64,000 bases of DNA from contig JAWABU010000003.1 of NCBI GenBank assembly GCA_038884455.1, positions 1,969 to 65,968 of the forward strand, in the 5' to 3' direction. The translations under genes were made by a program, and so were the position numbers. Origin of the DNA: Thermoplasmatota archaeon. Lineage in GTDB: Archaea; Thermoplasmatota; E2; DHVEG-1. The notes under the pieces are model-generated. The model was given only the letters and a program-made list of their open reading frames with translations, did no database searches and was not told where the DNA came from. Of the stretch, positions 1 to 23,251 are shown piece by piece; position 1 is the first letter of the stretch, and each line of letters begins with the position of its first letter.

Positions 1-187
1 TGAGTTGTGGGATTTCACTGTATTGATTTGATAGGTGGTTGTTGTTTTGGTTATATGTGTTTTCAAGAATATTGGTAGTATCAGCATCTGTTGTGTAGAT
101 AAAATTTGTTGGTACTAGTAATAATAAAGCTACGATGAGTGTACTTATTACTAATAGTCCATGGTTTAATTTCTGTTTGTACATCAT
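1..187 (-). CDS. Partial CDS (N-terminal 62 codons, runs off the window start) for a secreted or membrane-anchored protein. It begins MMYKQKLNHGLLVISTLIVALLLLVPTNF, i.e. a signal peptide or TM helix.
   Basis: The reverse-strand ATG at about 187 is preceded by GGGGGA about 7 nt upstream. The frame stays open to position 1. There is a hydrophobic N-terminal helix. A TATA-like TTTTATATA element lies about 60 nt upstream at about 247-256. The ORF is shorter than the six-frame track cutoff because it is truncated. Confidence 0.4.
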   Translation of the reverse strand, partial: MMYKQKLNHGLLVISTLIVALLLLVPTNFIYTTDADTTNILENTYNQNNNHLSNQYSEIPQL

Positions 188-304
188 CTTATTTTCCCCC
201 GAAATTAATATAGATTAATTTCTATGAATAATAGTATACCGCACACTATATAAAAGTATCGATGAAGTGTGTTCTTGCTCCGTTTTTTTTTAAAAAATTA
301 ATTG

Positions 305-3300
305 TTATTGCTGTCGTTTTGTATTAACTAATTGTTTTTCATATAATAATTGATAACATCGCATGTTATGTGGTATTTCCTCGTTTCCAGCATGATCCCT
401 TGCCCAATATTCAAGCATGATCATAGATCCCATCGGTATCATTGGATAATCACTATAACGAAAACTTCCTTGTGAGTTGTAAATTGTTTGAATCTCAGGT
501 ACAAATGGATGAATTCTATAATAGATTGCGGCAACTCCAGAGCCTCCTTCATCAGTTGCAATAAGACTGATTAGCTCAGATGGTAACGTTGGTCTGCCCG
601 GTGGACTGATGGTGCCTTCAGGGTTAACCATGCTCTGAGGAGGGAGGATATCTTCTTGACTGATTATGCTAAAGAAAGCAATGTTTGGTGGATGTATATT
701 ACCTGCTTTATCGGTAGCAAAAAAATGAATTTGTAGTGTTCCTGAAAGAACTCCAAAGTTTGCTGGGATGATTTCAACATCTGGTTTAAATTGTTGTTCT
801 GTTAGTAGAGGAATACCATTATGCCATATAGTATAAGTTATGGAGGAGATACCGGATCCTTCATCAAAAGCATGAATCCAAAGAGGCATCCAAGCAGGTA
901 TTTCACCACCAGGTGGAATTATACTACTTGTTGGGGGTGTATTATCTATCTGAACTGTGATTGTTTCAGTTGTCATGAATCCATTGGTGTCGCTGAGTTG
1001 TACAACAAGTGTGTGGTATCCATCAGAAAACTGTGTGGTATCAATCGGTATTGTTGTTGTCTGTTCAGGTTGTTGTTTTCTATGAAATGAATACATACTA
1101 ACATTGGTCGTATTTTTTGGTGAGATTGCCCACATTCCTAAAATCAAATAATCTGTTCCATTGTAAAAAAGACTGCTGAAACCATTTTCTGGTGGATCTG
1201 TCCACATGTCATCATCAGATTCTCCATTTGCAGGATCAACATATGAAAACCGATAGATTGGAATTTGTTCTTCACCTGCATAACCGATTGGTTCAGCATC
1301 AGCACCTTTGCCGGTCACGAAATGTCCACCCATTGAGATGTTGTCATCGCCGGTACCTGTTTTTCCATCATCTCCCGGTTCAGCAGGTACAATAAATAGG
1401 ATTACTGATTGATTCCTTCTAATTTCATCTTGGTATTTCTTATAGGTTATCTGATTACTTCCTGCTACAGGGTTCCAAGTACCGCTATTGTTTTTTATTG
1501 TTGTATCATAGCGTTTTACCTCATAACCTGATTTATTGTTGCTGCATCCAACACCTCGTCTTTCCAGATACGCTTTGATTCCTACTTCAACATTATCAGC
1601 GGTGAACGTATCATTTGTATTGTTGACTTTTCGCATAGATGTTGTTCCATGGCAACAAGTCGTGTTTAAATCATTGATGAGTTCTTGTGCTACTGCTGTA
1701 TCATTTCCTATCTTATTTACTGGATATGTGCGGTTGTCTTTGAGTTGAGCAAGTGCGTTTGCTACAGCTGTTGGTCCGCACCATCTGCTTTTATTATCCT
1801 TGGGGCAGTTTGGACCTACATCGGTTTGTTTAACTGAACCCACACCGGTCTGTTGATATTCATCTGGTGAGGTATCGGATTTGGTTTTTTGAGGTGGTGT
1901 ACCAAGTTTGAATAATTCAAGACAAGCAAGATTATCTCCTCTATTGGTAAACATAAAAGGATAGATTCCTGATATTGCTGAACCATAGGCTGGTTGAAGG
2001 ATTGTTGTTTTTGGTGGATTTCTATCAATATATACTGATCTGATGTTTTCTCCAAAACCACCATAGATATCAGTCATCTGTGCTTTTAAAAGGTAATAAC
2101 CCTCAGGTAGTCCTGTGATGTTCCACAAAACACTCCATCCTTCATCACCCATTTTTTTATTTTGTCCTTCTGGGAAAAGGTATCCTTCAAAACCACCATA
2201 GGTATCATAACCGATATCAATCCAGGTGATGCCATTGTTTGCTGAATATGAAAAACTCGTGTTGATAATTTTACCGTGGTTGATGTCAACTGCTCGAACA
2301 TAAACAGGTGAATCTTTCACTGGTGCAACCTGCCAATCTTCTTCGTACCAGAAATCAGTAGCCATAGGATTTGTGATCCAAACCCATGGTGAGTGATAGG
2401 GTGTGAGAATAAACCCTCTGAGTTGTCCAGCTGGGTTGTACCCATAACCGACAACATCTCCATGGTCATTGATATCATAGGCTTCAACAAGACTCCATCC
2501 GCAATCCGGTGGAATCAACGTGTTTAAATCCTTCATCACACCGTTTTCATACAGGAACGCATGAAGCGCGATGTTTCCAGATATCGTTGATGAACCAACA
2601 ATAGCATCCGTAGTATTGATTGCATGAGCAAATGTTTTCGTTCCACCCAAAGTTCCAAGATGAGTAACAATTCCATGGTCAAACAGATATGCACGAGTAC
2701 CTTGTGGTGTTTCTGCGTTGCCAATAATCACTCCCTGATTATTGATGTCAACTGCTTGGTCGTTTTCAAAACCAGATTCAAGACGCTGTATCCCTGTTGA
2801 TTCATTCCAGACGAATGCATGGTTATGCGTCCCATTTTCATCAGTATATGATGATGTACCAATAATAGTTCCTTGGTCATTGATTGCACGGGCAACACTC
2901 CCTGTATCACCAGGTACTATCCCGAGATCAATCATACCATTTTCTTGGCCCCAGAGAAACGCATGGGATGGTTGCCATTGTCGTGGTTCAACATACGAGG
3001 TACCGACAATCTTTCCTTGATTGTTAACATCATACGCGTAACTAACATAGTCCATCCCCATAAGACTGCCCAGATCAAACATGCCGTTTTCATTCCAAAG
3101 GCAGGCATGAACCGTCCAGTTTGGTTGCCTTCGATGTGAACTTCCAACGATCCACCCATGGTCATTGATTGCCTGAGCAGAGCTCCACAACCCGTTTCCC
3201 AAAATGCCAAGATCAGTTATTAGACCTGCATCATTCAGAAATGCATGCTGTGCTCCATATTCTACTCCTGAGCTTCCCACAACCTGACCATGGTTATTTA

Positions 3301-6300
3301 CTGCATACGCCAAGCTTACATTGGTTTCTTCACCAAGAATTCCCAGATCGGTAACACCATACGGTGCATAGACGGTTGGACCAAGAATCGTTGTGGTGGT
3401 TGTTTGAAGAACACCATTAGAAGCTATGAAGAAAAACTCATGTCTTCCTGGTGATAACCGCATTCCATACACATAGGTTAATCCTTGTTGTTTTCCACCA
3501 ATGTTACCATCTTTTGGAAAGATACGATGAACGTTTCCATCGATAATGATTGTTAAACCTTGTAGGTCATTCCATGAGGCATCAAAGATATCCCAATTTC
3601 CATTTCTATTGCTGTGCCATTTAATATCTGGCTCACAAATAGTATTAAGCGCTATATCTGGGAACATGTCATCATGGGTATCAGGTGATACGAGAATGTC
3701 GGCTGCAGGATTATTATTGCTGGTGCTGATCTCAGAGTAATAGATATCCCAGTTGCCTATACGATCATCATGCCAGGTGAGTAGTATGTCGCCATCAAGA
3801 GTAGATCCAATTACTTGTATCCGTGGGTACATTGAATATCCATCAAAAACTGGACCAGTGTAAACCCCAAAATTAGTACTTGGATCTTTCATATCGCTTT
3901 GTCGTTTTATATCATATGCTGATGGATAAGGAACACCGCCAGGCATGATGGTTATAGTACCAATGGTGAGGGTGTAGATCTCCCATTGACCTTGTATATG
4001 GGTTTGTTCTTCTTCATGACCTGGGTCGGTTGCTCTGATATCCATGAATGCTATATGAGGAGTATTGTTGGCATCTAACGCAAGAGCTGGTGATGCAGAA
4101 CTATATCCATCGTTTTCTGATGCTTGGTAATCATCAAAGTTACGGATCACGATGACACTATCGCTTGCACTGTTTCCATTGCAATCATCTCGATAGGGAT
4201 CGAGTTTTTCATAGAAGATTTCCCATGCTGTATTAATGGTGTTAAATTGATCCATCCATACGATATGGATACAATCATCGGTCCCAACTGCAAGAACTGG
4301 ACTGATAGAATCATTATTAGCCATCCATAACGGTGGTGCAGGGTTGCTAATCCTGGTATCATCAATGAGGGTTGTTGGAATGCCTTGCTGATTTGGTGCA
4401 TTATCCTGGAGTTGGTAGTAGACCTCCCAGGTTGGGTTTCGATGATCACTCCACACAATTGAAATGTTTCTTCGTGAATCAATCGTGATACCAGGATGCT
4501 CGATAAATTGAGGATCATGACTTTCAAAAGGACCAACCACGCGTCCTGAACTTTTTCCATCATGGGCTGATACCCGCCAGTCTGGTCTTGTGGCATCAGC
4601 ACCACTCTGCACTGCTGAATAGTTCAGTAACCCTCCGATTTTCGAATAATAAATCTCATAGATATCATCAGTATCGTTTGGATTAGGGTCATCACGCTGA
4701 TCCGCCCAGACAACGTGGATGTTTTCAAACACATCCATCTGCGGATGTTGGATCAAAGCAGTCTGTTCAGCAACGAGTTGATGGATCGCATATCGATGTG
4801 CTTCTTCGACAGATATTTTTCCATTATTATTATAATCTGCACTCATGTTTTGGATACGATCATAGAATCGATACACATACGAGTACGTTGTTTCGTCTTC
4901 TCTACCGCAGGCAAGCACCACGCGATGAGGACCAGCACAGTCAGGGATAAAACCACCTGCATGACACGTATCAACAACAATAACCATATCCTTATAGGGA
5001 ATCGCATCGAGTCGTTCGTCGAGTTCATCATCAGTATAACTGGTTGACGAGACAACATTTACTTCATCAGGGTTTTCATATGTGCCAAATGATTCATCAA
5101 AGTTGTCTTCACATTCATCATTTGCGGTTCGTATATCACCATTTCTCCCATTGGCTAGGGCCCGAGCTCCATGGTCTTGGAGATACACAAAGACAAGATC
5201 ATGTAATGTTGTTTGATGTTCTAATAAATGAAAAGCATTGGTTAGATTTGTTTTTGTTGCTCCTCCATCAATCCAGGATTCGTTGAAGTCAAAGGGTAAC
5301 GGTTGCCAGGTGACCGCAGGGTAGTTATCACTTTCAATGATACGCCATTTCACCAAGTTTCCTTGAGTATCAGTGATCCAATATGGTATAGTAAGCACCG
5401 TGATATGATCATCAGAAAAACCAAGGTTAAGGAGTGTCTGTCGCATTTTTTCTACTTCATATTTGAATCTTATTTCAGGATAGAAATATCGTGCGATAAA
5501 TGTGAAATCATAGGTTTGTGGTCCACCACCATCAAGATCTGAAAAACCCCATGTGATTCCTCGCCAGTCATTTGCTATATACGGGTTTCCGTCAGTGTAA
5601 TACCATTTGTATGGATCTGTTGACGTCACATCAATGCGATATGCACGTCGTATTTGAAATGGTGCGGGTACCCATTTGTAAAAGGCCAGCCATTGTTTCC
5701 CATCAGGGATTAGTGATGATGATATTGTTTTTGAAAATACGACGCCTCCCCCACCAGTTAAATCAGTAATATTTACTGTAATGCTACTTGAATAGGTAAG
5801 GTTTGGGTCTTTGTAGATCATAAGATCTATCCAGAGATCAGTTGAGAGGTACTTGTGTCCTGTGACAAATTGTTGCCAGTGGTTGGGTGTGGTGTTCACC
5901 CAGCAGCTGTGTGGTTCTTTGAACTGTGTCTGATCATAGTAGTAACGAACCGGTGCAGCTAACACAGCATACCGATCTTCATAGTGTACATCATTGAGGT
6001 AGATTTCCTCATGAGGTTCGATGATTAAGGAGGGATACATAGAATTAGAGTTGTTACCATCAGAGATCATCGTATCATTGACGATGGTTTGATTAGTAAT
6101 CGTTGTGGTACCACAGAGATTTCCAACACCGGTTCCCTGAGGGTTTATTTCTTTGTAGAAAACCTCCCATTTGAAGTTGGTATACCTCATCCACACACAA
6201 TGCGAATGATTATCATAACCAACTGCTTTACGCACATGAACATCATTATCAAGATCAACGACAACGTTTTTTTCAGTTTTAAAAAAATTCTGTCCAAAGA

Positions 6301-7903: not shown

Positions 7904-7946
7904 GTTTTTTCTCCCAATATAATATCTAAATTTTTTGGTGTTTTTT

Positions 7947-10900
7947 CTATTTTTTAACTATTCCTTCTTGATTTATAAAAAAGAACAACTCATAATCATT
8001 GATGGTTATTCTCCATTCTGGGTAGTATGGTGATGAGTTTCGGTAGGCGAGATCGAATGTCATGGTTGTTGGTTTTTTGGGTGTGATTCCGTGTTCTTCA
8101 CAGTAGTTGAAAAGTATTTGTTGTGCTTCTTGTTGTGATATTGGTAGATACTTCATAGGTGTGGTTGTCCATGATGTTTCTTTGAAGCTGCCATCATTGG
8201 CATCGATGATAACAACAATGACGGTTTGCTCAGTTGGTGTTTGTTGTGTTCGTTGGTATGTTTGTGTTTTTGTTGGTAGGTTAAAAGGTACTAGGTAGTA
8301 ATCATTTCCACCGTTGAGGTTTTTGATGAAGAGTGGTGTTCCTGGTGTTGTTTTTTGGAATAGATCTGCAAATTCTGTGTCATAGGGGATGAGTTCTTCG
8401 GTGATGCCTGTGATTGCTGCTTGGGTGATCCATTGGTCAATTTGTTTTTGTAGGTCTTCTGTTGTTTTGGTATTTTTGTTTTGTGTGCGGTGTATGAGTT
8501 GTTGTTGTTCTGCTGTAAACTGAGTTTTTGTTGTTGCTAGGGTGATTGTGGTGTCGGTTCGTGTTTCTGGTGGTTCGCAGAGTGCAACGTATTTGCCGTT
8601 GTAGATGTCGTTTGATGTGAGTGGTTGGTAGTAGTTTGTGTTCCATTGGGTGATGGTTTTGTAGCTGTTTTCACCGATTCCTCCTGGTAATGGATCGTTG
8701 ACCCAGAAGCCGTAGATGGTGAGATTTGTGGGTAGTGGATAGGTGGGTTGGTTGGTGTGTATGCCTCGGATTGCCATCCAGTTGCTGTAATCTCCATATG
8801 CTGGGACCAGTGCTGGAACATGCAGTGGATGTCCTGGTTTATATCCGCCATAGGTACCGATTGTATAGTTAATCCATGTGCAGATTTGCTGGAGCATATA
8901 TGTTTGGTTGGTGTTGCTGTATTTGTTGAAGTTGTATCCGTAGGTGGTGTAGGGGAGTGGTCGGTAGGTTTGGAGGAGTTTCCAGAGTCCTTGGGTGTCA
9001 ATGTAGGGTATGGTTTGATCACTATTATTTGCATGGCCTGCTGTGTAGAGCCATTGTTGATCTGAAAAGATTAATGGTGGTTCACTAGGGTTTTGTGTTT
9101 GGTTCCACCACATATAATTGAGCGTCATCTGTGCACATGCAGGACCGCACATTTGATGATACGGTGCTATCGCTTGGTACATCGGAAAGTTGTTGAGGTT
9201 GATGAAGTAGCCTATTGAGAAGGTGTAAACCGTTGAGGTTTTCGTATTTCCGTTGTTGTCTTGTGCCCAGATTGTGTACGAGTAGATGCCCTGTGTTTGA
9301 TACGTGGTATTGTAGTAGTACTGTGCAGTTCCTGGTATTTGAGCCATGGTGATATTTGTTGCTGGTCCAACTGGTGGGAGGATGTGCACGTTCACCATGT
9401 GTATACCACTCAGATCAAACGCAGAACAGCTGATGTTTACAGATTTGTTTGGTACTTGAAGTAGTGGTGTTGCTGTGATTGATGTTATCTCAGGTTTGGT
9501 GGTATCAGCCTGTGTTGTAAAGGTGAAGATACTGCTTGTTTCGTAGATACCATCAGTTACTACGACTTTCCAGGAGTAGGTGGTAAAATAGTGTGAAAAT
9601 GCAGAGGGGCGTTGCATGATGGTTACTGGCGATGTTGTGTCGCTGCTGTAGTTTGCAGCAAACGGCTCCCAGGTTCCCGTCGTGTTGGTGTACCATGTTG
9701 CATGCAGGATATCATGATCAGGATCATTGATGGTTACTTGAAGAAGTGGATTGAGTTCAATCGTATTTGAATTGTTTGATGGTGTTGGGTTGTAGGGTTT
9801 GGTTGGTGCATGTTTCAAGGTTGAGATGCGGACTTCATCAATGGTTCCTTTGAATTCAAGGGTTCCTCCATGACCGCTGAGTCGTTTGCCAATACCAAGC
9901 GGGTTTTGTGAGGATGCAGGTGGATAGATCCATGATGCTGGCGGTGCATCTAGTTTTCCATCAACATACACATGAGCATGGGTTCCTGTCCATTCACCGG
10001 CAACATGATGCCATTGATTGTCTCGAAGTATCGTGGATCCCCAGATGTCCTTGGTTCCGTACGAACCACAATACAATGATAATCGAAGTACTCCTCCGTT
10101 GATGTACAGCGTGAATCCTCTCCCATTGGTGGTGTACTGGAGTTTGTCGACGATGATAAGGTAGTTATCGGTTGCTGCTGTTCGAATCCATGCTTCAACT
10201 CTGAAGGGTTGGGTAATATCTAAACTTGAGTTGTGAGGAATGGTGATATAATCGTTTCCATCAAAGTATAAGCACGAACCAATTTTTCCAGGTGTCCATG
10301 TTGCACCAGTGATTATTCCATCATTGTGATACGTTGAGGTGTCGTATGCTATTGATCCGGTTCCTTCGTCAAGATGCCAGTACCCTTGAGCATGCATATA
10401 CTCTGTGGTGAAACTCCAGATTGGACCTGAAATTGTATGACCGTATGTATCATGTGCGACAACCATCCATGTATACGTTGTAGAATACTCGAGTCCTGCT
10501 GTTTGATAATACTGTTTTGTTTGTTGCGATGCTATCTTGATGAGTTGCGAGGGGCTACTTCCGAAATATACGTCATACGTGAGTGTGTCTTCTGTATCTA
10601 TCTCATTGCAAGTCCAGGTGAGATTGACAAAGACACTGATATTTGATGCACTGGAACTTGGAGTTGGATCTGAGGGGAGGTTTGGTGGTGTGTTTGGTTT
10701 TGTGGAAAACATCCAGAGTGGCCCAGATGTCGTTAACCCAGAGGAATCATGCGCAACAATCCTCCAGTAGTAGGTTGTATCATATGAAAGAAGAGGCAGA
10801 TCATAGGATGAGGTTGGATGTCCTGTGATGAGGAGTTCTGGGTTTGGTGTTGTCCCAAAATAAAGATCATACAGAAGGATCTCACCAGGGTCTGGGTCGG

Positions 10901-13900
10901 TACATGACCAGCTGAGATCTGTGGTTATCGGGAGATTTTGTGCAGTATGCTGTGGTGTTGGTTGCTCTGGTCTGGTTGGATAGTTGTGTTGCTGGTAGAC
11001 TTTGATTTGGTAGGCGCCACCGCCAAGGTCTTCGTAAACTGCAAGATCATTGAAACCATTATTGTTAAAATCATCAATCGCAGTGGTAAGCAGTGTTCCT
11101 GTTCCGGTGTATTCTTTGATTGGCTGATAGTTGGTATTATAAATAGTCACCATGTTTTGATGGGTGATTGCAAGTTCGTTGATGTGGTCATTGTTGAAAT
11201 CACCGATATACACACCACTGGTTTGTGTGATACTTGGTGACGTATATAGTAGATTCCATGATTGTTGATTTCCATAGATTCGAACTTGGTTTACTCGGGA
11301 GACGACGACTTCATTTCCTTGTTCTGGTAAAAAATCACCAATTGCGACGTCACGCATGGTTGACAATGCCAAAGAACTAAGTTCAGCACCAAATCGGTTG
11401 TAGACTCGTAAAACAGTTCCGGTACCTGAACCTGTGATGAGAAGAATATCATCAAAGCCATCGTTGTCAAAATCACCAACTGCCGCTCCTCGTTGGAGTA
11501 GTTTGACAAACAACTGTTTATACCCAACATCACTGAATTGAGAGTAGCTTTTTTCTGGAAGTGGTCGGTAGAGACAGGAACCAAAGGTTTGTCCTTGGTA
11601 TGGATCATAGAGTTCTTCACAGTTGTTGCCGTTGTGGTGATCAATGATGCCGAAAAACATGTGGATTGTCCCATCTTTTTCAGTGACTGCGATATCATTG
11701 TATCCATCATGGTTATGATCCTTGATAATGACTGCTTGTGGTTGATTGAGCCCAGGAATCCTAAACAACAGATGACCGGTGGTGTTGAAGATTGACACAT
11801 ATCCGATCCGTTGTTCAGCAACCGCAAGATCTACATATCCATCGTTGTTGATATCGCCAATTGAAACCCCCATAGGATCATGCAGACCATGTATGGTTCG
11901 AAGTATTGCACCTGTGCTGTTCAAGATTTTGACTGAACCATTTGCATATTCAGCAACTGCAATATCATTTGAACCGTCATGGTTATAATCACCAATACAC
12001 ACACCAGTTGGTATATTCAATCCAGAGACTTGTTGTACCTGATTACCATTGGCGTCGTAGACAACAACGGTGTTTGATGATTCAATTTTCACGATTCTAC
12101 CTGTTGGTCCAAAGGTTCCTAGTGCTACCCCATTGAGACCTCTGAGACCTTTATCTCCACCTATAGGGTTGCCATTTCTATCCATTGGTACAACCTGTGC
12201 TGCACCAGTTGTCATCAGGTCAGCAAGCACAGCGCTGGTGAGTCGTTGGTTGAGTAATGCTTCTTGTGGATTATTTTTGAATAAGTCAATTATTGTAGCA
12301 AACTCCTCTGAATCATTGGTTGGTGCACCAGGTGTATAGCCTTTAAGGAGTGTAACGGTTGACACAGTACTTGGTAATGTGAGTCCGCAGTAGTTTCCAG
12401 CAATCACTCGATAACAGAGGATCTTGTTTGCATCACCTTGTCGATTCACTATAACCTCTGTTCCGTTACCATTGAACACCTGCCATGAGGATCGTTCCCA
12501 TTGACATCGCGGTGGTACAAAATCATTGTCAGGATAGTATTCTGCTTCTTCAACAATGTAAAATGTTGCCCCAGGAACTCGAGTCCAGTTTATGGTGAGC
12601 GGCAGATCTGAGTTGACGATGGATCCATTGGTTGGTGTATTAAGTGTTGGTCTGCCTTGTGGAGGAGTCCATCCGACTTGGTAACAATTTGAATATAACA
12701 CTTGGATATCAACAATATTACTCCAGGGTGAAACACCACCTATTATGTCACTGACCCGCATGCGGTAGTAATACGTGGTTGTTTCAGCTGGTGCTTTCCA
12801 GAGTTTTTCATACAGATCAGTTCGTGATCCTGAAACATCCCATTCTCGGACGATAGTAGAAAATAGTGGATCTGTTGATTCTTGAAGATCAATATTGGTG
12901 GTGGATGAAACCGGATCCCAGCTGATGATATATGCTCGGTATCGTTCTATGGTGGTGCCTGGGTCATGAAGTAGTGGTGCTGGTTGCGTTTTGTTACCAT
13001 ATACGGTTACGGTGATCGTATCACTCCAGTCCCCATCTTCAGCATATGGTGCAAGTGCTTGGATACGGTAGTAATACGTTCGTGTAAATGTTGTGTTATG
13101 TGCTGTTGACCAGTTGGTCGCGGGAATGACACCGCATCCTCCAAATATTTTGTCGACAATGAGATGATCAAATCCGCGATCGGTTGCTTCTTGGAGGCGA
13201 TATTGTCCTTCTGGCTCGATACGATTCCAGGTAAATGAGTAGGATTGTCCTGCGTAGGTTTCACGGGTACTTGGTTTGAGGCTTGGTGTTCCTGGTTTTG
13301 GAACTCCTGAGGTGCCGTATACTTTTTTTATCACCGGATTACTCCATGGTCCAAAGCCACCACTGTTTTTTCCTTTCACACGGTAGTAGTAGGTTGTCGT
13401 CGTGGTTGGTGAATGTTGAAATGCTTTATGAAAGGTTGATTTATTGGTTGTATATGTTTGAAGGTTTTGTGTAAACGTTGGGTTTGTTGCCTCTTCAATG
13501 AAGTATTCATGGATATCACTTTGATTATACGTCCATTCAATAAAGTAAGGGACACAGTGGGATGTGTTAAAGGTTGGTTGTATCAAACGTGGTGCATATT
13601 TTGGTGGAGGGAGTATTTCGATACTAACGTTTCGACTCCAGTTTCCATCATAGTACGTTGAACCAATTTTCCGGCGACATGCAATTTGATATTCGTAGAC
13701 GGTTGGTTCAGTAACAGTATGAGAAAAGGAGTAGCCAAACCACCATGATCCATCAGTCTGATTTTGATACATGACATGGTCGTTAAGATTAAGGATCGTA
13801 TTCTCGTTCCAATAGATTTCATTGATGAGTTTTTTTTCAATACGTGGCCTGTCAGCCGCAGTAAGGTTCACCCATTGATATTCTCTCAAATGATATCCAT

Positions 13901-15986
13901 AGTCGATGCCACTGGTGGTCTTTTTCCAATGAAAACCATAGACACGCCCTGATCCATTTCTGACTGGAAGATCCTTGATGATTGGTGCATCTTCTGGTTT
14001 TGCTTGAATTGTGATTGAAACAACATTGCTCACTGGACCATAGCGATCGAATTTATTATAGGGAACTACTCGATAGTAATAGGTGATCTGTGGTGTCGTT
14101 TTGAGAAACGGTCGCCACAGCCAGGTCTGTGCAGGATAATTATACCAGGTAACATTGTTTGTTGATTCCTGAAGGACATAATATGCGATGCGATCAACCG
14201 TATTCCAGGAAACGAGGTAGAATCCATATTCCTGTACTGAAGGTTGTGATACCGTGATGGTTGGTTTGCTGGGTGGTGCAAGGATTTCAACGGAGCGATA
14301 ATCGGTACAGGTACCACCGTTTTTATCAGTCACCTTCACCACGATCGTGCATCGTCCTGGTGCAAGTGTATTTGTTGAAAACCAGGTTGTTTTCGAAGAA
14401 ACACCGGTCTGAACAGAGAGTAGTCGCGAGGTGATATTACGATGTTCATCTCGTCGTTCTTCAAACCATTCATAGGTATATGGACCGTTGCCTTTGGTTA
14501 CTTTTGCAGTAAATGAAATCGTATCATTCTGAGCAATGAGTGTATACTCATCAGCAGGTTTTTCGAATTCAATAATCGGATATTCAACTGGTGCATAGTA
14601 AATCAATGCATTATGCAGCCAGATACCTTTATGATGATTTTCATAGCCTCCTTCAAGGAACGGATCACCATCATATCTGAAATTTACATATGCGGTTGAT
14701 GCGCCTGCTGCTTGGGCCCGGATATATGCCCCTGCCCAAATATAATTTGCTACGTTCTGATTTAATTTCACATTTTGTAAAAAGATTGTTTTCGCTCCTG
14801 AGGTGTTTTCTGAAACATTAAACAACATATCGTAGAATTGTAAAATATCGATGATATTACCGACTCCAGGAATTCCGAGTGATTGCTCGATTGCTTCATC
14901 AAGGACAGAATTTGCAACAATGTTAACAATTTCTTCAGTATACGAAAGTGCAGGGCCCAGAACGTCGACAAGATCACCTCCTTCAGCAAGCTTGGTCCAT
15001 TTAGAGATACCTGCCGGCGGTGGTGCTCCCCATGCGAGACCTGAACCGACAATATATCCATACAATGAAGCACCGATCGGTGAAACAGAGTTGACATCCA
15101 TGCTTCCAGCCCAGGTCGTTCGAATGAAAATATTTGCACGGCGATTCTCAGCAGTTTCAATCGGACTGAATTCTCGATAACTAAATGCTGCTACCTCAGA
15201 ATATGATCGTAAGAATTCATCCATTTCAGTGAATTCTTTCCAAGATGCATGATACCCATGCGCGAATACCCAGGGATGGACTGCATATCCAGAGATGGTT
15301 AGATCAGTATAGATGCCTGGGTAAACTGACCAATCGCCATGTTCTGTCGCCCAGGTTTGACAAGGATCTGAATCCTGGACTTCAACGTAAGAACCAGAAA
15401 AAAGAAGACGAGGATACGAATCCTGTGCGTTCAGCGTGATCTCAAGGGTTCCAAGCTCAGCCATCAGCGTAGCAATATAGATGCTGTCGTGGAGTTTCCC
15501 AACATCTTGCACCGTCTTATTTCCGCAGGTGTATCGCTCATAGATCTGGGTAGGGCTGTTTGGTGTTGAATATATTAAAAACGAGATATTATCTGCGAGA
15601 TCAATCGTTGTTGTGGTAACTTCGGTAAGAAGATGGCATATAATCGTATCGCCATAGGTTGCTCCAAGATCAATAGTATAGGTGATGTGATCACTGTTAT
15701 CTGATTCAGGGACGTAGTGAAAATCAGTAAAAACAGCGCCCCTTCTCCTAGTTGATTTTGGTTGATTTGCATAGTCTCCAGTTTTTTCTGAAGCCAAGGA
15801 CGTTTCTTTTTTAGATTCTTTTGGTACGTCTCCACAGTGCTGACATGGCTCGTCATGTTCGACATCTGCAGCTTTAGCAGTGTTCTTTGAAACAAACTGA
15901 GTATTGGTACATGGTACAAAACAAAATCCAAAAAACAGCATCGTCAACGACAACGCTATGAGTATTTTTTTTGTTTGAACATGCAT
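7947..15986 (-). CDS. Giant secreted multidomain surface protein 2 (about 2680 aa). Layout: signal peptide; unknown N-terminal region; several FN3-like domains (YYYRV motifs); a 7-blade FG-GAP / integrin-alpha-like propeller (aa ~1300-1670); 2 FN3 domains; a LamG/ConA-like lectin domain (aa ~1875-2060); Ig-like domains; a papain-like module with a 'QMCGPACAQMTL' motif (Cys2285); a Thr/Gln-rich linker; and a C-terminal domain.
   Basis: A single uninterrupted ORF. The six-frame track starts it at the ATG at 16001 (MGGKNM...). I prefer the in-frame ATG at 15986 (MHVQTKKILIALSLTMLFFGFCF...) because GGGAGG lies 7-8 nt upstream. Either way there is a signal peptide. The FG-GAP, FN3, LamG and papain-like motifs listed below were read directly. 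N-x-S/T sequons are very dense. Confidence 0.9.
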   Translation of the reverse strand: MHVQTKKILIALSLTMLFFGFCFVPCTNTQFVSKNTAKAADVEHDEPCQHCGDVPKESKKETSLASEKTGDYANQPKSTRRRGAVFTDFHYVPESDNSDHITYTIDLGATYGDTIICHLLTEVTTTTIDLADNISFLIYSTPNSPTQIYERYTCGNKTVQDVGKLHDSIYIATLMAELGTLEITLNAQDSYPRLLFSGSYVEVQDSDPCQTWATEHGDWSVYPGIYTDLTISGYAVHPWVFAHGYHASWKEFTEMDEFLRSYSEVAAFSYREFSPIETAENRRANIFIRTTWAGSMDVNSVSPIGASLYGYIVGSGLAWGAPPPAGISKWTKLAEGGDLVDVLGPALSYTEEIVNIVANSVLDEAIEQSLGIPGVGNIIDILQFYDMLFNVSENTSGAKTIFLQNVKLNQNVANYIWAGAYIRAQAAGASTAYVNFRYDGDPFLEGGYENHHKGIWLHNALIYYAPVEYPIIEFEKPADEYTLIAQNDTISFTAKVTKGNGPYTYEWFEERRDEHRNITSRLLSVQTGVSSKTTWFSTNTLAPGRCTIVVKVTDKNGGTCTDYRSVEILAPPSKPTITVSQPSVQEYGFYLVSWNTVDRIAYYVLQESTNNVTWYNYPAQTWLWRPFLKTTPQITYYYRVVPYNKFDRYGPVSNVVSITIQAKPEDAPIIKDLPVRNGSGRVYGFHWKKTTSGIDYGYHLREYQWVNLTAADRPRIEKKLINEIYWNENTILNLNDHVMYQNQTDGSWWFGYSFSHTVTEPTVYEYQIACRRKIGSTYYDGNWSRNVSIEILPPPKYAPRLIQPTFNTSHCVPYFIEWTYNQSDIHEYFIEEATNPTFTQNLQTYTTNKSTFHKAFQHSPTTTTTYYYRVKGKNSGGFGPWSNPVIKKVYGTSGVPKPGTPSLKPSTRETYAGQSYSFTWNRIEPEGQYRLQEATDRGFDHLIVDKIFGGCGVIPATNWSTAHNTTFTRTYYYRIQALAPYAEDGDWSDTITVTVYGNKTQPAPLLHDPGTTIERYRAYIISWDPVSSTTNIDLQESTDPLFSTIVREWDVSGSRTDLYEKLWKAPAETTTYYYRMRVSDIIGGVSPWSNIVDIQVLYSNCYQVGWTPPQGRPTLNTPTNGSIVNSDLPLTINWTRVPGATFYIVEEAEYYPDNDFVPPRCQWERSSWQVFNGNGTEVIVNRQGDANKILCYRVIAGNYCGLTLPSTVSTVTLLKGYTPGAPTNDSEEFATIIDLFKNNPQEALLNQRLTSAVLADLMTTGAAQVVPMDRNGNPIGGDKGLRGLNGVALGTFGPTGRIVKIESSNTVVVYDANGNQVQQVSGLNIPTGVCIGDYNHDGSNDIAVAEYANGSVKILNSTGAILRTIHGLHDPMGVSIGDINNDGYVDLAVAEQRIGYVSIFNTTGHLLFRIPGLNQPQAVIIKDHNHDGYNDIAVTEKDGTIHMFFGIIDHHNGNNCEELYDPYQGQTFGSCLYRPLPEKSYSQFSDVGYKQLFVKLLQRGAAVGDFDNDGFDDILLITGSGTGTVLRVYNRFGAELSSLALSTMRDVAIGDFLPEQGNEVVVSRVNQVRIYGNQQSWNLLYTSPSITQTSGVYIGDFNNDHINELAITHQNMVTIYNTNYQPIKEYTGTGTLLTTAIDDFNNNGFNDLAVYEDLGGGAYQIKVYQQHNYPTRPEQPTPQHTAQNLPITTDLSWSCTDPDPGEILLYDLYFGTTPNPELLITGHPTSSYDLPLLSYDTTYYWRIVAHDSSGLTTSGPLWMFSTKPNTPPNLPSDPTPSSSASNISVFVNLTWTCNEIDTEDTLTYDVYFGSSPSQLIKIASQQTKQYYQTAGLEYSTTYTWMVVAHDTYGHTISGPIWSFTTEYMHAQGYWHLDEGTGSIAYDTSTYHNDGIITGATWTPGKIGSCLYFDGNDYITIPHNSSLDITQPFRVEAWIRTAATDNYLIIVDKLQYTTNGRGFTLYINGGVLRLSLYCGSYGTKDIWGSTILRDNQWHHVAGEWTGTHAHVYVDGKLDAPPASWIYPPASSQNPLGIGKRLSGHGGTLEFKGTIDEVRISTLKHAPTKPYNPTPSNNSNTIELNPLLQVTINDPDHDILHATWYTNTTGTWEPFAANYSSDTTSPVTIMQRPSAFSHYFTTYSWKVVVTDGIYETSSIFTFTTQADTTKPEITSITATPLLQVPNKSVNISCSAFDLSGIHMVNVHILPPVGPATNITMAQIPGTAQYYYNTTYQTQGIYSYTIWAQDNNGNTKTSTVYTFSIGYFINLNNFPMYQAIAPYHQMCGPACAQMTLNYMWWNQTQNPSEPPLIFSDQQWLYTAGHANNSDQTIPYIDTQGLWKLLQTYRPLPYTTYGYNFNKYSNTNQTYMLQQICTWINYTIGTYGGYKPGHPLHVPALVPAYGDYSNWMAIRGIHTNQPTYPLPTNLTIYGFWVNDPLPGGIGENSYKTITQWNTNYYQPLTSNDIYNGKYVALCEPPETRTDTTITLATTKTQFTAEQQQLIHRTQNKNTKTTEDLQKQIDQWITQAAITGITEELIPYDTEFADLFQKTTPGTPLFIKNLNGGNDYYLVPFNLPTKTQTYQRTQQTPTEQTVIVVIIDANDGSFKETSWTTTPMKYLPISQQEAQQILFNYCEEHGITPKKPTTMTFDLAYRNSSPYYPEWRITINDYELFFFINQEGIVKK
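8592..9209 (-). other. Papain-fold (clan CA; C39-like or C10/streptopain-like) cysteine peptidase-like module in giant protein 2. The candidate nucleophile Cys2285 is encoded at 9147-9149.
   Basis: The motif YHQMCGPACAQMTLNYMWW resembles the C-G-x-A-C / G-C-V-A-T-A-x-A-Q active-site helix start of C39-like and C10 peptidases. The codon was verified on the DNA. The family assignment is tentative. Confidence 0.4.
10992..12104 (-). repeat. Seven FG-GAP repeats (integrin-alpha-like 7-blade beta-propeller with Ca-binding DxDxDG-like loops) within giant protein 2.
   Basis: Seven instances of the (V/I)xxGDxNxDGxxDxxV motif: GVCIGDYNHDGSNDIAVAE, SIGDINNDGYVDLAVAE, IIKDHNHDGYNDIAVTE, AVGDFDNDGFDDILLIT, VAIGDFLPEQGNEVVVS, YIGDFNNDHINELAIT, and AIDDFNNNGFNDLAVYE. 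Confidence 0.7.
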
Positions 15987-16029
15987 ATTTTTGCCTCCCA
16001 TTGATAAACTTTAGCAAGATTTACATATC

Positions 16030-16050
16030 TGCTGTATATTTAAATATCTT
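16030..16050 (-). promoter_or_regulatory. Putative archaeal TATA box for giant protein 2. On the minus strand it reads TATTTAAATATA, about 35-45 nt upstream of the start.
   Basis: An AT-rich TATA-like element at the expected distance in the 270-nt intergenic region between the gene 2 start and the upstream small ORF. Confidence 0.35.
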
Positions 16051-16269
16051 ATGAAAAAAATATATCTTTGTTTTTAATGGAATTTGAGATTTTTTCCTAA
16101 TAAAAAACACTTGTTACGTACCATTTATTTTTTTATTTTGGTTTTTCTCCATGACGATTTAACGGCTTCGTAGAGAATACTTGTTTCAAAAACCAATTTT
16201 TTACTATCGTTTGTTGTAAGTTGAAATGCGTGACTGCAGATGTTGCATTTTTAAAAAATGAGCTAACGA

Positions 16270-20188
<3,919 letters not shown>

Positions 20189-20207
<19 letters not shown>

Positions 20208-20866
20208 CCTTCAAGAAATATGATTACGGTAACGTCATCTCCATCGAGTAATCGTAATTTCTCGCGAAGGTTATCCTTAGAGATGAGTTCAAGAATATTT
20301 GAATAATGACTTCTTTTCGGTAGAATGATTGCTCCTGGTATATCGTTGATCATTGCATGAAAACATATACCCCCACCAAAGGTTCTGTTTTCTGTTTTAA
20401 ACTCATCAATAGTAATACCTTTGCAGTTTTTTAACAACCGAAGTTTATTACGCTCGACAGAATCAATTTCAACATTGAGTGTTCCAGGATAGGGCAAAAA
20501 CTGAAGTTTGTTTTGGAACTGAACTGCATATCCTTTTTGTTCTGTGTAATATTTTCCTTCACCAAGACCAGATACAACTTTACCTTTGAATACAATCTTA
20601 TTTGGTAGATCAAATATTTGTTTATACAATGCATACTCATCAGCTAAGATATCGGCACCGGCTTGGGTGATTTGTATCAATTGTTTTTTAATCCCAAACT
20701 CGCGCGAGATCATTCCTACTTTTTCTAATTCAAGAAGATATCGTGATGCTGTTTGTTGGCTTGCGTCTAATCGTGCTGCTAGTTCTTGTGAAGAGATCTC
20801 GACACGATTTCGCATAGCTCCAAGCAATCCGAGTTCTTTTAGCGTTTGAAGTAGGTATGGTTTCAT
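20189..20866 (-). CDS. rbkR: HTH transcriptional regulator fused to an archaeal CTP-dependent riboflavin kinase (RbkR-like), 225 aa.
   Basis: The N-terminal winged HTH region is ISSQELAARLDASQQTASRYLLELEKVGMI. The C-terminal MJ0056-type riboflavin kinase motifs are KGKVVSGLGEGKYYT, PYPGTLNVEI and GAIILPKRSHYSNILELI. It overlaps the polX start by 19 nt. Confidence 0.7.
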
Positions 20867-20896
20867 AGCTTTCCTCCAATAAAATATTTTTTTTTG

Positions 20897-21136
20897 TTAT
20901 TTTCCCATTTTTTCTGCTAGTTTTTCTCCTTCGGTGGTAAACCAAATGGTATTTCCCTTCTGTTCAAGGATCCCTGCATTGATAAAATCAGAAATAATTT
21001 TCTCTGCAACAGATCGAATTATGCGCTGTTTTTTGATGATACGATTGATATTTTTTTCTCCAGAGGCAATTTCATAGAATATTGCACGTCGATGTTTATT
21101 TGAAAGTATAAATCCTTCATCCATAGGTATAACCAA
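20897..21136 (-). CDS. Small winged-helix DNA-binding protein of 79 aa (hypothetical regulator).
   Basis: A short basic ORF that heads the rbkR-polX-ligA operon. It has an HTH-like segment (NINRIIKKQRIIRSVAEKIISDFINAGIL). Confidence 0.45.
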   Translation of the reverse strand: MVIPMDEGFILSNKHRRAIFYEIASGEKNINRIIKKQRIIRSVAEKIISDFINAGILEQKGNTIWFTTEGEKLAEKMGK

Positions 21137-21176
21137 TATCTTAATTTATTGGTATCACATAAAGCTTTTCAAAGGT

Positions 21177-23095: not shown

Positions 23096-23251
23096 TTTAA
23101 AGTATGTGTAAGACCAGAACCTGCAGGTCCTTAAAAAGCATTACTATTTAAATTGAACTTCGATAGTTTTTATTTTTTAGAATATATTTTTGTAGTTTAT
23201 TCTGAGAAAGATATAAATATTAGATTTTTCAATATATTTTTGAGTACGCGT

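Follow-up and report, generated by a model that had tools for sequence, protein, structure and literature searches.

What do two giant genes and the beginning of a third encode in the genome of a Thermoplasmatota archaeon, and do they form one system? The window, meaning the whole stretch of 64,000 nt that was analysed, comes from the metagenome-assembled genome GCA_038884455.1 (contig JAWABU010000003.1, positions 1,969-65,968, forward strand), and all coordinates given below are window positions, counted from its first letter. A preliminary description had regarded the three genes as a dedicated system for surface adhesion and proteolysis and had compared them to the giant proteins of episymbiotic archaea. 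We lean towards another reading, in which the region would open a fast-evolving island of exoprotein genes just downstream of the RFK-PolX-LigA block of a sediment archaeon, combining binding modules with extracellular proteolysis and a C-terminal cassette as a shared handling module. The open reading frame listing placed the genes head to tail on the minus strand, together with a small frame upstream of gene B:

305..7903, minus strand: gene A, open reading frame of 2532 aa, predicted exported mosaic protein (GenBank MEM4257694.1)
7947..15986, minus strand: gene B, about 2679 aa (GenBank MEM4257695.1); an in-frame ATG further upstream at 16001 would give 2684 aa
1..187, minus strand: gene C, first 62 codons inside the window, signal/anchor segment
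16270..16464, minus strand: Cys-rich frame of 64 aa, DUF6485-like, between ligA and gene B, position kept in relatives

The real start of gene B is probably the ATG at 15986, judged from a GGAGG 7 nt upstream of it, and the NCBI annotation also gives 2679 aa. Gene C starts at 187, runs off the window and reaches at least 702 aa on a 99%-identical contig; profile searches found no recognisable domain in it and a metagenome scan no relative. By direct reading, AT-rich TATA-like boxes and GGAG(G) motifs lie upstream of genes A and B and a TATA-like box upstream of gene C. A Kyte-Doolittle scan found one strongly hydrophobic segment in each of the three proteins, always N-terminal, and no hydrophobic C-terminal segment, in agreement with the N-terminal signals or anchors and the lack of a C-terminal transmembrane anchor described before. 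A, B and C would be exported by the Sec route via this segment. Sequon density amounted to 15.4 and 15.3 per 1000 aa in A and B versus 3.7 in 21 other open reading frames of the window (about four-fold), which is 1.7x and 1.4x the composition-based expectation, so that the extreme N-x-S/T richness noted earlier was borne out; A, B and C are probably N-glycosylated.

Gene A was resolved into the following modules:

7799..7903, minus strand: residues 1-35, Lys-rich start, then the sole hydrophobic segment, a predicted signal peptide or N-terminal anchor
6956..7546, minus strand: residues 120-316, LamG/CBM-type beta-jelly-roll (Laminin_G_3, marginal)
6383..6616, minus strand: residues 430-507, OmpL47-type beta-barrel/Ig-like domain (NCBIfam NF047446, 9.3e-19, two stretches)
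4784..5416, minus strand: residues ~830-1040, clan-CD C13/legumain-like cysteine peptidase domain (Peptidase_C13 and motifs)
3554..4738, minus strand: residues ~1056-1450, six W[ED][IV][FY]-type repeats, TIGR04275-like, beta-propeller-type (repeat listing and profile)
2339..3316, minus strand: residues ~1530-1855, seven HAF repeats, DUF3466-like (TIGR02913 (HAF_rpt) 3.2e-48; DUF3466 2.2e-15; repeat list)
1154..1816, minus strand: residues ~2030-2250, C39_2-like papain-fold domain (Peptidase_C39_2 2.2e-4, 22.3 bits, under the cut-off of 24)
308..1051, minus strand: residues ~2285-2532, C-terminal Ig-like domains (weak Big_13 and Big_3_3 matches), no anchor

The match to Peptidase_C13 (6e-10, 39.5 bits) exceeded the gathering cut-off of 22.8 and confirmed the caspase-like clan-CD domain proposed before. 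His911 (5171-5173) and Cys980 (4964-4966) lie in the motifs LQDHGA and VDTCHAGG, and a weak match to the Cys motif of metacaspase-4 was also found. With this pair intact, A would be a large extracellular cysteine peptidase. The C39_2-like domain, with Cys2042, His2194 and Asp2223 in the motifs WCGPTAV, GGHFVTG and YVDP, may represent a second cysteine-peptidase-type domain, and both would hang on the jelly-roll, the propeller-type and HAF repeats and the Ig-like domains. Extracellular peptidases are found widely among sediment archaea, Thermoplasmata and ANME-1 included (PMC9123169). A resembles their C13 and other clan-CD enzymes in its profile score and its His-Gly...Cys order, and C25 gingipain-like enzymes occur in neighbouring islands; it differs in that the putative peptidase domain forms part of a 2532-aa mosaic, has about 69 residues between His and Cys and shares the chain with a papain-fold domain.

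The non-peptidase modules of A were partly redefined. A LamG-like lectin domain had been assigned to both giants, which was clear for B and marginal for A (28.3 bits, cut-off 27.6). Paralogous copies of the jelly-roll, 52-55% identical and in tandem in P0002, P0003 and P0004, matched CBM_4_9 in 5/7 and a Sialidase-like CBM in 4/7 cases. The propeller had been described as PD40, and this identity was rejected, as A gave zero PD40 matches even at E <= 1 and the beta-propeller repeat family TIGR04275 matched instead (1.3e-4 in A directly; 1.6e-13 and 7.6e-10 for homologous repeats in P0002, where they are regular, and P0015). A seventh unit of this type lies near residue 579, and the AlphaFold prediction of the propeller and clan-CD regions had a pLDDT of 27. 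The HAF repeats were found as described, and their region shares 42% identity with the C-terminal part of the L005 giant.

Gene B is built differently:

14562..15866, minus strand: residues 46-480, head domain, conserved in B-type proteins
12342..14564, minus strand: residues ~480-1220, PKD/FN3-like stalk with repeated YYYR motifs, read from the sequence
10992..12134, minus strand: residues ~1290-1670, seven FG-GAP repeats, integrin-like beta-propeller (FG-GAP 5.9e-17; FG-GAP_3 1.3e-14)
10401..10979, minus strand: residues 1675-1867, FN3 pair (PDB sequence match, PTPRF FN3, 6.7e-5)
9822..10262, minus strand: residues 1914-2060, LamG/ConA-like domain (Laminin_G_3 1.6e-22; Laminin_G_2 9e-7)
8532..9239, minus strand: residues 2255-2490, C39-like papain-fold cassette core (Cys2285, Asn2407, Asp2436)
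7950..8531, minus strand: residues 2491-2684, cassette tail, long helices followed by two helix-and-beta-sheet PepSY-like units (model secondary structure)

No catalytic site was detectable in B, and its sequence reads as that of a long binding protein, in which a possibly novel head, the stalk, the seven-blade propeller and the LamG domain would precede the cassette. The head gave no significant match in a Pfam search and none in a PDB search with a 4-sequence profile; it shares 64% identity with P0008 and 33% with P0086. Over their full length, relatives of B reach 58% (P0008), 37% (P0086) and, over 1835 aa, 34% (L005 giant). Seven Ca-loop-like FG-GAP repeats were counted by eye, of which a regex caught four, in line with the 7-blade propeller seen before. 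The FN3 pair, which together with the OmpL47-type and Ig domains of A upholds the described Ig/FN3 spacers, is common to P0002, P0003 and the L002 and L005 giants (BLASTP 40-54%).

The most informative feature of the locus is a large unannotated family of C-terminal cassettes, to which the CGP module of B belongs, a relation that had been overlooked. The cassette comprises the last 430 aa of B (2255-2684), a C39-like domain and two PepSY-like units. Neither Pfam nor NCBIfam has a model for it; 25 members searched gave no Pfam match (PepSY reached E 0.09 in 1/25), and at the sequence level the module of B matches no Pfam family, C39 and C39_2 included. In the modelled structure the core has a papain/C39 fold, which is visible at that level only. 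The tail carries the motifs VVIIDANDGSFKE and FFINQEGIV and matches YpeB weakly (E 0.04). The CGP modules of A and B had been considered related and papain-like, yet no BLASTP match links them, hhalign gave a probability of 0.2% and the cassette profile misses A, whose own domain stays under the profile cut-off. The earlier inventory thus held for the layout, most domains and the sequons, and failed for PD40 and this kinship.

Cys2285 (9147-9149) marks the beginning of the central helix and is part of the CGPA motif typical of C39 peptidases. From secondary structure and motif register, Asn2407 (8781-8783) appears to occupy the canonical position of the catalytic His, so that the module would lack this residue, which had also escaped notice. 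Asn is found there in 26/26 Cys-bearing members, in members with His instead the nucleophile position carries Ser or Thr, and 0 members pair Cys with His. Cys, Ser or Thr occupies the nucleophile position in 95% of members (Ala in five), and His2394, His2415 and Asp2436 (8694-8696; NDP motif, 97%) are well conserved, so that a non-canonical catalytic site is possible. Cys2285, Asp2436, the residues at the nucleophile position and the modelled fold might also fit an active, self-inhibited protease, i.e. a C39-type peptidase with its own PepSY inhibitors that would process the giant and release or activate the upstream modules, similar to the self-processing cysteine protease domains known from large bacterial toxins and adhesins. 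PepSY-like units are classically taken as peptidase regulators, and double-PepSY proteins were interpreted as protease inhibitors (PMC6393860). Nevertheless, we consider this unlikely in view of the missing Cys/His pair and the members with Ala; Ser and Thr are equally explicable as helix N-caps, and no conserved GG-type cleavage motif ahead of the cassette was seen when the sequences were read by eye. We infer a degenerate C39 peptidase fold and not a working GG-type protease. As a handling module in the exoprotein island, non-catalytic or non-canonically catalytic, the cassette might keep its protein at the cell surface, serve as a ligand-binding unit or aid maturation.

Known C39 domains help to place it. 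Those of bacteriocin ABC exporters (ComA, PCAT1, LahT) have the CGPA opening the central helix and the Asp of 'DP' in common with it, but they reside in transporters, whereas the cassette sits at the C-terminus of predicted Sec-exported proteins, with a helical linker and two PepSY-like units attached to its core. The degenerate domain of HlyB also lacks a complete catalytic set, having lost Cys, whereas the cassette appears to have exchanged His for Asn; the C39_2-like module of A, unlike the cassette, has the full Cys/His/Asp set. Methanogen surface proteins (the endoisopeptidase PeiR, 8z4h, and A0A126R2S0, PMC13642728) are likewise archaeal and extracellular and end in a C39-like fold whose activity or residues are non-canonical; in one methanogen protein, this C-terminal domain showed no GG-peptidase activity (PMC13642728). 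Their domains retain both Cys and His and come after pseudomurein-binding domains in Methanobacteriales, whereas the cassette, at 430 aa, is the larger unit and differs in residue pattern and taxonomic range.

At a threshold of E <= 1e-3 the family counts at least 484 protein clusters, and at E <= 1e-30 it still counts 235; the named matches among 130 came from ANME-1, Methanosarcinales, Lokiarchaeota and others, and nearly all bear the name 'hypothetical protein'. In most of 84 open reading frames the cassette ends 8 residues or fewer from the stop codon, and 140/184 full-length members have an N-terminal hydrophobic segment. It terminates many secreted proteins in islands of sediment archaea (peptidases, beta-helix proteins, lectins, RHS proteins), including 7/7 large complete genes in two arrays of a related metagenome-assembled genome and 3/6 genes in another island. 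In serving as one C-terminal element for many, often genome-clustered cargoes, it recalls sorting domains (T9SS CTD, PGF-CTERM/archaeosortase, LPXTG/sortase), but it is a far larger, folded, enzyme-like unit with neither a hydrophobic helix nor a PGF or LPXTG motif. Some bacterial members add a T9SS-like tail after the cassette, which speaks against the cassette itself being the anchor there. No partner gene, machinery or cognate processing enzyme was found adjoining cassette genes, and a sorting or anchoring role is therefore not independently backed.

The RFK-PolX-LigA block is conserved in about 20 relatives, and giant genes follow it only in some. Which giant genes occupy the slot downstream of ligA varies between relatives (other cassette giants in L036 and L058), and in most relatives unrelated or ordinary genes are found there. 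B-type positional orthologues are 34-37% identical, compared with 65-73% for LigA, the L005 giant is a fusion of B-type and A-type modules, and gene A has a 99% twin (P0001) in a second metagenome-assembled genome and elsewhere only fragments in common. Ordinary S-layer-type structural envelope proteins could also be large, predicted to be exported, sequon-rich and equipped with Ig/FN3-like domains, and the LamG region of B weakly matches an 'S-layer domain-containing protein' (PDB 4qvs, E 0.0016). As A has no other full-length relative, the slot varies and the proteins contain enzyme domains, this explanation is highly improbable, and S-layer genes conserved throughout with the same architecture were rejected.

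Attachment to a host or to a syntrophic partner, by analogy with episymbiotic small-genome archaea and bacteria, would be a tentative alternative. Giant modular adhesins of comparable build include the bacterial RTX/Bap-type adhesins. Omnitrophota giant proteins, tied to host dependence, also exceed 2500 aa, are exported and lineage-specific, evolve fast and carry Ig/FN3 spacers, propellers and lectin domains (PMC10066038). The integrin-like propeller, LamG/CBM, HAF repeats and long FN3/Ig stalks would suit such a function, as would giant genes that change as fast as those for partner recognition, and many cassette proteins stem from consortium-forming ANME-1. Compared with those giant adhesins and exoproteins, the present proteins have no RTX repeats and no T1SS signal, their N-termini are of the archaeal Sec type, and they carry peptidase domains and a C-terminal cassette common to many unrelated cargoes. 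On the other hand, the present data identify no partner, and neighbours in islands elsewhere are mainly degradative enzymes (C25, C1, M14, S8). Full housekeeping genes and operons in the window and the 1.79 Mb chromosome of a complete relative speak against a reduced genome and leave the episymbiont analogy unsupported. Nor is a dedicated system supported, as adjacency alone links the three and related genomes have several such arrays with differing contents; what stands of the earlier interpretation are sequon-rich, predicted exported mosaics with binding and cysteine-peptidase-type modules. The locus is a fast-evolving exoprotein island and neither an S-layer locus nor an episymbiont system. 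Its proteins likely bind to neighbouring cells or to organic matter in particulate or polymeric form and would digest protein outside the cell.

In L001 and L029 the 64-aa Cys-rich frame was called as well and matched DUF6485 weakly. GenBank already lists both giants by automatic names, A as 'C13 family peptidase' and B as 'LamG-like jellyroll fold domain-containing protein'.

Three head-to-tail genes on the minus strand (A, B and C) fill the first 16,001 nucleotides of the window and encode proteins that are probably exported, two of them giant mosaics, in agreement with the preliminary description.

Genes of the exoprotein locus
305-7903, minus strand: gene A, 2532 aa
7947-16001, minus strand: gene B, 2684 aa from the ATG at 16001 (2679 aa as called by NCBI)
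start at 187, minus strand: gene C, leaving the window after 62 codons

For B, the ATG at 15986 is the likely start, with GGAGG 7 nt upstream. The same three genes were found at 99% identity in a second MAG (GCA_038740275.1), where gene C extends to at least 702 aa. The DNA is archaeal; aIF5B, NOG1, a CTP-dependent riboflavin kinase and an A-type ATPase are encoded in the window, and the window proteins are recorded in NCBI under a 'Candidatus Thermoplasmatota archaeon' MAG. Each of the three products has a single hydrophobic segment, located N-terminally behind a Lys-rich start, and the hydropathy scan revealed no C-terminal hydrophobic window in A, B or C, so that the reported lack of a C-terminal transmembrane anchor was confirmed. 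Class III (pilin-type) signal peptides were rejected, since no [KR]-G/A motif precedes the hydrophobic segments. AT-rich TATA-like boxes lie upstream of A, B and C and GGAG(G) motifs upstream of A and B; of the proposed separate TATA/SD-like signals, the first kind was thus found for all three genes and the second noted for A and B. A T-run is present 3' of gene A and none between B and A, which are 43 nt apart. Sigma-70 promoter and terminator sites were no more frequent than in shuffled controls, and this model does not apply to an archaeon. The described richness in N-x-S/T sequons was borne out, with 15 per 1000 aa in A and B versus 3.7 in 21 other window ORFs and a 1.4- to 1.7-fold excess over composition in A and B.

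Uncultured archaea commonly encode giant mosaic exoproteins. A and B join this known modular class as new members, already carry automatic GenBank names and are no surprise alone. The profile searches resolved A into the following parts.

Domains of protein A (residues)
120-316: jelly-roll of LamG/CBM type (Laminin_G_3, 28.3 bits as isolated module, cut-off 27.6)
about 430-507: OmpL47-type Ig-like domains (NF047446, 9.3e-19, two stretches)
510-830: no significant match in profile searches
about 830-1040: C13 clan-CD peptidase domain (PF01650, 39.5 bits, cut-off 22.8, E 6e-10, query 800-1060)
1056-1450: six W[ED][IV][FY] repeats, with one more near 579 (TIGR04275, 1.3e-4, three stretches)
1530-1855: HAF repeats (TIGR02913, 161 bits versus 22.65, 3e-48, six stretches; seven repeats by motif)
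about 2030-2250: C39_2-like domain (Peptidase_C39_2, 22.3 bits, cut-off 24, E 2.2e-4)
C-terminus: Ig-like domains (weak Big_13 and Big_3_3 matches)

The HAF repeats and the caspase-like clan-CD domain had been named before and were both recovered above their thresholds, the latter with its dyad in the order His-Gly ... Cys (LQDH911GA, VDTC980HAGG). The peptidase domain might be inserted into a propeller; the AlphaFold model of residues 505-1520 had a pLDDT of 27, from an alignment of only three sequences. A PD40 propeller was rejected, because PF07676 gave no match at E <= 1 in A residues 1040-1520 and the repeats match the TIGR04275 beta-propeller repeat instead; in homologous repeats, the best PD40 match was E 0.33 in one repeat set. 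Homologous but more regular repeats reached TIGR04275 values of 1.6e-13 (P0002) and 7.6e-10 (P0015), the matches of both related proteins and of A all lying below the whole-protein cut-off of 85 bits. The repeats of P0002 and P0015 also match beta-propeller lectin and BNR_4 models. W[ED][IV][FY]-type units number only three or four in related proteins, and a closed propeller in A is plausible. The jelly-roll is marginal, as its Laminin_G_3 score drops to 26.3 bits in a longer segment, and copies in other giants (52-55% identical) match CBM_4_9 and a sialidase-like CBM. PDB sequence searches with A, its repeat-unit profile and its jelly-roll profile gave no match. The Peptidase_C39_2 match stays under its threshold and spans only about 33 residues around the Cys; read from the sequence by the C39 pattern of a Cys at a helix start, a His on a beta-strand (H-F/Y-V-V) and an Asp in 'DP', the module appears to hold the full set (WC2042GPTAV, GGH2194FVTG, YVD2223P). 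The most fitting reading of A is that of an extracellular cysteine peptidase, tethered or released, which carries many binding modules.

Parts of protein B (N- to C-terminal order)
46-480 (435 aa): head, no family or structure match
downstream of the head: PKD/FN3-like stalk
loops at 1330-1660: seven FG-GAP repeats (PF01839, 61.6 bits versus 22.1; PF13517, 55 bits versus 26.9)
after the FG-GAP repeats: FN3 pair
next: LamG domain (Laminin_G_3, 80.8 bits versus 27.6, 1.6e-22)
after the LamG domain: further Ig-like domains
2255-2684: cassette, with a core (2255-2490) and a tail (2491-2684), no Pfam or NCBIfam match

In B, the proposed 7-blade FG-GAP region was supported by both Pfam models and by seven D-x-N-x-D-G-like Ca loops. 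The ConA/LamG lectin that had been assigned to both giants is clear in B and marginal in A. A PDB sequence search with the B head profile was without match. The most fitting reading of B is that of a long binding protein. An extracellular peptidase (A) and a binding protein (B) would fit reports on sediment archaea, where Thermoplasmata and ANME-1 widely carry extracellular peptidases, whose presence is no proof of protein catabolism (PMC9123169).

A and B had also been thought to share related papain-like 'CGP' modules. This relationship found no support, as no BLASTP match was obtained, the cassette profile had no match in A and hhalign gave a probability of 0.2%. The motif layout is common to both modules, which most likely belong to the same fold superfamily. 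They represent different families, and A alone appears to have the full triad.

The C-terminal 430 aa of B turned out to belong to a widespread module. A profile of this cassette and its two relatives was searched against 1.84 billion representative proteins and matched 484 clusters at an E-value limit of 1e-3 and 235 at 1e-30, nearly always at the extreme C-terminus of proteins of 431 to 3380 aa. The word-indexed protein search with full-length B had returned 5 relatives only, versus the 484 clusters from exhaustive HMMER with the last 430 aa; such a search badly under-reports module-level relatives of giant mosaic queries. With a 25-sequence cassette alignment, the word-indexed search yielded 130 proteins, of which the named ones are nearly all 'hypothetical protein', have no Pfam domain at the cassette and come from ANME-1/Methanophagales, Methanosarcinales, Lokiarchaeota, Euryarchaeota and a few bacteria. 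A Pfam family across the cassette was found in none of the 25 members. The cassette family is large and has no entry in Pfam or NCBIfam; it was not found in the literature searches made, and such proteins go unmentioned in a paper on variable hotspots of ANME-1 (PMC13385816).

The proteins that end in the cassette are diverse and include peptidases (C25 gingipain-like, S8, C1, M14, M28, trypsin-like) as well as NosD/beta-helix proteins, PQQ propellers, cohesin, LamG and RHS/YD repeat proteins. At 80 metagenome loci, the cassette of most ORFs ends at most 8 residues from the stop codon, and the remaining ORFs continue beyond it with a short tail or one of about 110 to 190 aa, T9SS-like in some cases. 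An N-terminal hydrophobic segment was found in 140 of 184 full-length cassette proteins and a C-terminal one in none. A PGF-CTERM/LPXTG-type anchor, that is, a C-terminal hydrophobic helix with a sorting motif, was absent from A, B and 245 cassette proteins.

Some probably bacterial members (P0025-P0028, P0121, L039, L040, L060, L081) have an extra C-terminal domain of about 110 aa beyond the cassette that resembles a T9SS sorting domain and ends ...GVYFxRLxSGxFxSVKKxxLVR. The cassette would there be cargo and not the sorting signal. RHS/YD-repeat proteins of more than 2000 aa that end in the cassette were also seen (L028:1-9682, plus strand; P0032; P0063), with the cassette about 1000 aa downstream of the PxxxxDPxGL-type motif of the RHS core. 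In classical RHS toxins, the variable toxin is located at the C-terminal end, and a cassette at this place is by comparison an unusual arrangement. Polymorphic toxins were rejected, because here the C-terminus is conserved and the N-terminus variable, the reverse of toxin systems.

The predicted structure of the B cassette core has a papain-like C39 fold, and the cassette represents a new form of the C39-like fold.

Structure matches of the cassette (entry, protein, score)
3erv, C39-like peptidase, 13.9
6mpz, PCAT GG-protease, 13.5
5xe8, ComA peptidase domain, 13.1
8oig, Staphopain C, 11.4
8z4h, PeiR, 11.1
3zua, HlyB C39-like domain, 9.5

On the sequence level, the cassette profile had no match in the PDB, and neither B nor any of the 25 members matched PF03412/PF13529 at E <= 1. 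B has Cys2285 in a CGPA motif where the central helix begins and Asp2436 in an NDP motif, and Asn2407 would occupy the position of the canonical C39 His, in a register set by secondary structure and motifs; the C39_2-like module of A shows the same 29-residue His-to-Asp spacing. Among 151 members, 123 align at the nucleophile position (Ser 48, Thr 43, Cys 26, Ala 5, Asn 1). Each of the 26 members with Cys carries Asn at the His position, the nucleophile residue is Ser or Thr in those with His at the canonical position, and a Cys and His pair was found in 0 of the 151 aligned members; B has no complete Cys-His-Asp set at the canonical positions. As Cys is never paired with His, the core looks like a disabled, or at least non-canonical, C39 peptidase. 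The tail is modelled as long helices followed by two helix-plus-sheet units (a helix with 3-4 strands) and contains the motifs VVIIDANDGSFKE and FFINQEGIV. By motifs and topology these units look weakly PepSY-like; Pfam PepSY matched 1 of 25 members (E 0.09), and Foldseek compared the tail with the YpeB C-terminal domain at E 0.04 and probability 0.23.

The C-terminal position, the unrelated cargoes and the incomplete catalytic set favour the cassette as a shared non-catalytic handling or binding module. The HlyB C39-like domain is a precedent, and a second one is the C-terminal C39-like domain of a methanogen protein, recently found to lack GG-peptidase activity (PMC13642728). A self-regulated protease unit is a live alternative, for which the nucleophile position speaks, being Cys, Ser or Thr in 95% of members, together with the apparent resemblance of the tail to a PepSY inhibitor (PMC6393860). 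Going beyond a non-catalytic module, the cassette could be a hitherto unrecognised general exoprotein-handling module of anaerobic sediment archaea and some bacteria. Derived from a disabled protease, it would serve as a tag for surface display, retention or maturation and mark whole islands of secreted enzymes and adhesins; we regard this proposal as rather unlikely. The tag role would be similar to that of T9SS C-terminal domains or sortase signals, from which the cassette differs in its disabled-protease origin.

Gene-content comparison showed that the slot downstream of ligA, taken by B in the window, is variable. LigA was scanned in species-representative genomes, which gave about 20 Thermoplasmatales-type MAGs with LigA 57-73% identical. 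The housekeeping block RFK-PolX-LigA is upstream in all of them, with differing genes behind ligA. Ordinary genes occupy the slot in several relatives, and the giant found in L002 differs in its head, which includes NosD/beta-helix domains. The metagenome contigs L036 and L058 have other cassette-bearing giants after PolX-LigA. In L005, the slot holds a giant of at least 2841 aa (13504-22026, plus strand; the gene runs off the locus), of which residues 6-1867 match B at 34% and residues 2337-2841 match the HAF region of A at 42%. The B-type N-terminal 1870 aa and the A-type HAF region are thus fused in one gene, which is direct evidence that modules move between neighbouring giant genes. GCA_043806635.1 shows the order NOG1-RFK-PolX-LigA, a 64-aa DUF6485-like ORF and a B-type giant (P0086, 37% identical to B over 2127 aa), followed by secreted proteins of 1308, 1560 and 1425 aa unrelated to A and C. 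The cassette ends 7 of 7 complete large genes in two arrays of this genome, is present in 3 of 6 genes of the island with the A-type P0002 and occurs only in B in the window. After antisense shadow ORFs had been filtered out, neighbour clustering of the 80 cassette loci revealed no conserved non-secreted partner gene, and only other secreted proteins recur.

Relatives do not share one gene of identical architecture, and an S-layer locus or conserved envelope protein was rejected on this ground. The locus is a fast-evolving exoprotein island, and the idea of a dedicated three-gene system was given up. The analogy to episymbiotic archaea is weak as well, as a complete relative has a 1.79 Mb genome. 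The locus provides a concrete case of a hypervariable exoprotein slot beside a conserved housekeeping block, with module shuffling visible between neighbouring genes and between relatives. It also exposes a large, well-folded domain family of at least 484 clusters without database description, located at the end of many secreted proteins (peptidases, lectins, beta-helix and RHS proteins) in ANME-1, Methanosarcinales, Lokiarchaeota and Thermoplasmatota. The turnover of protein and polymers in anoxic sediments is believed to be controlled by these archaea, and to our knowledge it is not known by what means their extracellular enzymes are held or matured. Should the cassette serve retention or maturation, one recombinant domain would make this question testable.

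Further observations concern the surroundings. The 64-aa Cys-rich ORF (16270-16464, minus strand) has a weak DUF6485 match and overlaps the ligA 3' end; two other MAGs (L001, L029) have a called gene in the corresponding position, with ligA on one side and the B-type giant on the other. The product could be a small metal-binding protein that belongs with one or the other neighbour. LigA itself (16424-20207, minus strand) is of the bacterial NAD-dependent type with BRCT and zinc finger, lies directly downstream of the PolX-PHP polymerase, and has its next-closest sequences (43-44% identical) in bacteria (Bacteroidetes, Saccharibacteria). A 404-aa ORF beside tRNA-Gly (23153-24367, plus strand), without Pfam match at E <= 0.001, is the only sizeable one without annotation among ten neighbours scanned. 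Gene C, continued on the twin contig (L001:17716-19823), has no family match over 702 aa and no relative in the metagenome scan; it contains two acidic motifs (DLDIDSDNTNNH and VDLDVDSDNDNRY) resembling calcium-binding loops and is Cys-rich around residues 150-215. The tandem-repeat search gave no recent DNA-level duplication, its sole find being a 20-nt, 2.2-copy repeat (8238-8282) inside the cassette-tail coding region of B. This repeat falls within 8001-10000, the coding region of the C-terminal quarter of B, which is strongly skewed compared with the rest of the window (GC skew +0.35, AT skew -0.32, plus strand); in our reading, the skew reflects A- and C-rich codons of a Thr/Gln/Asn/Pro/Tyr-rich sequence.
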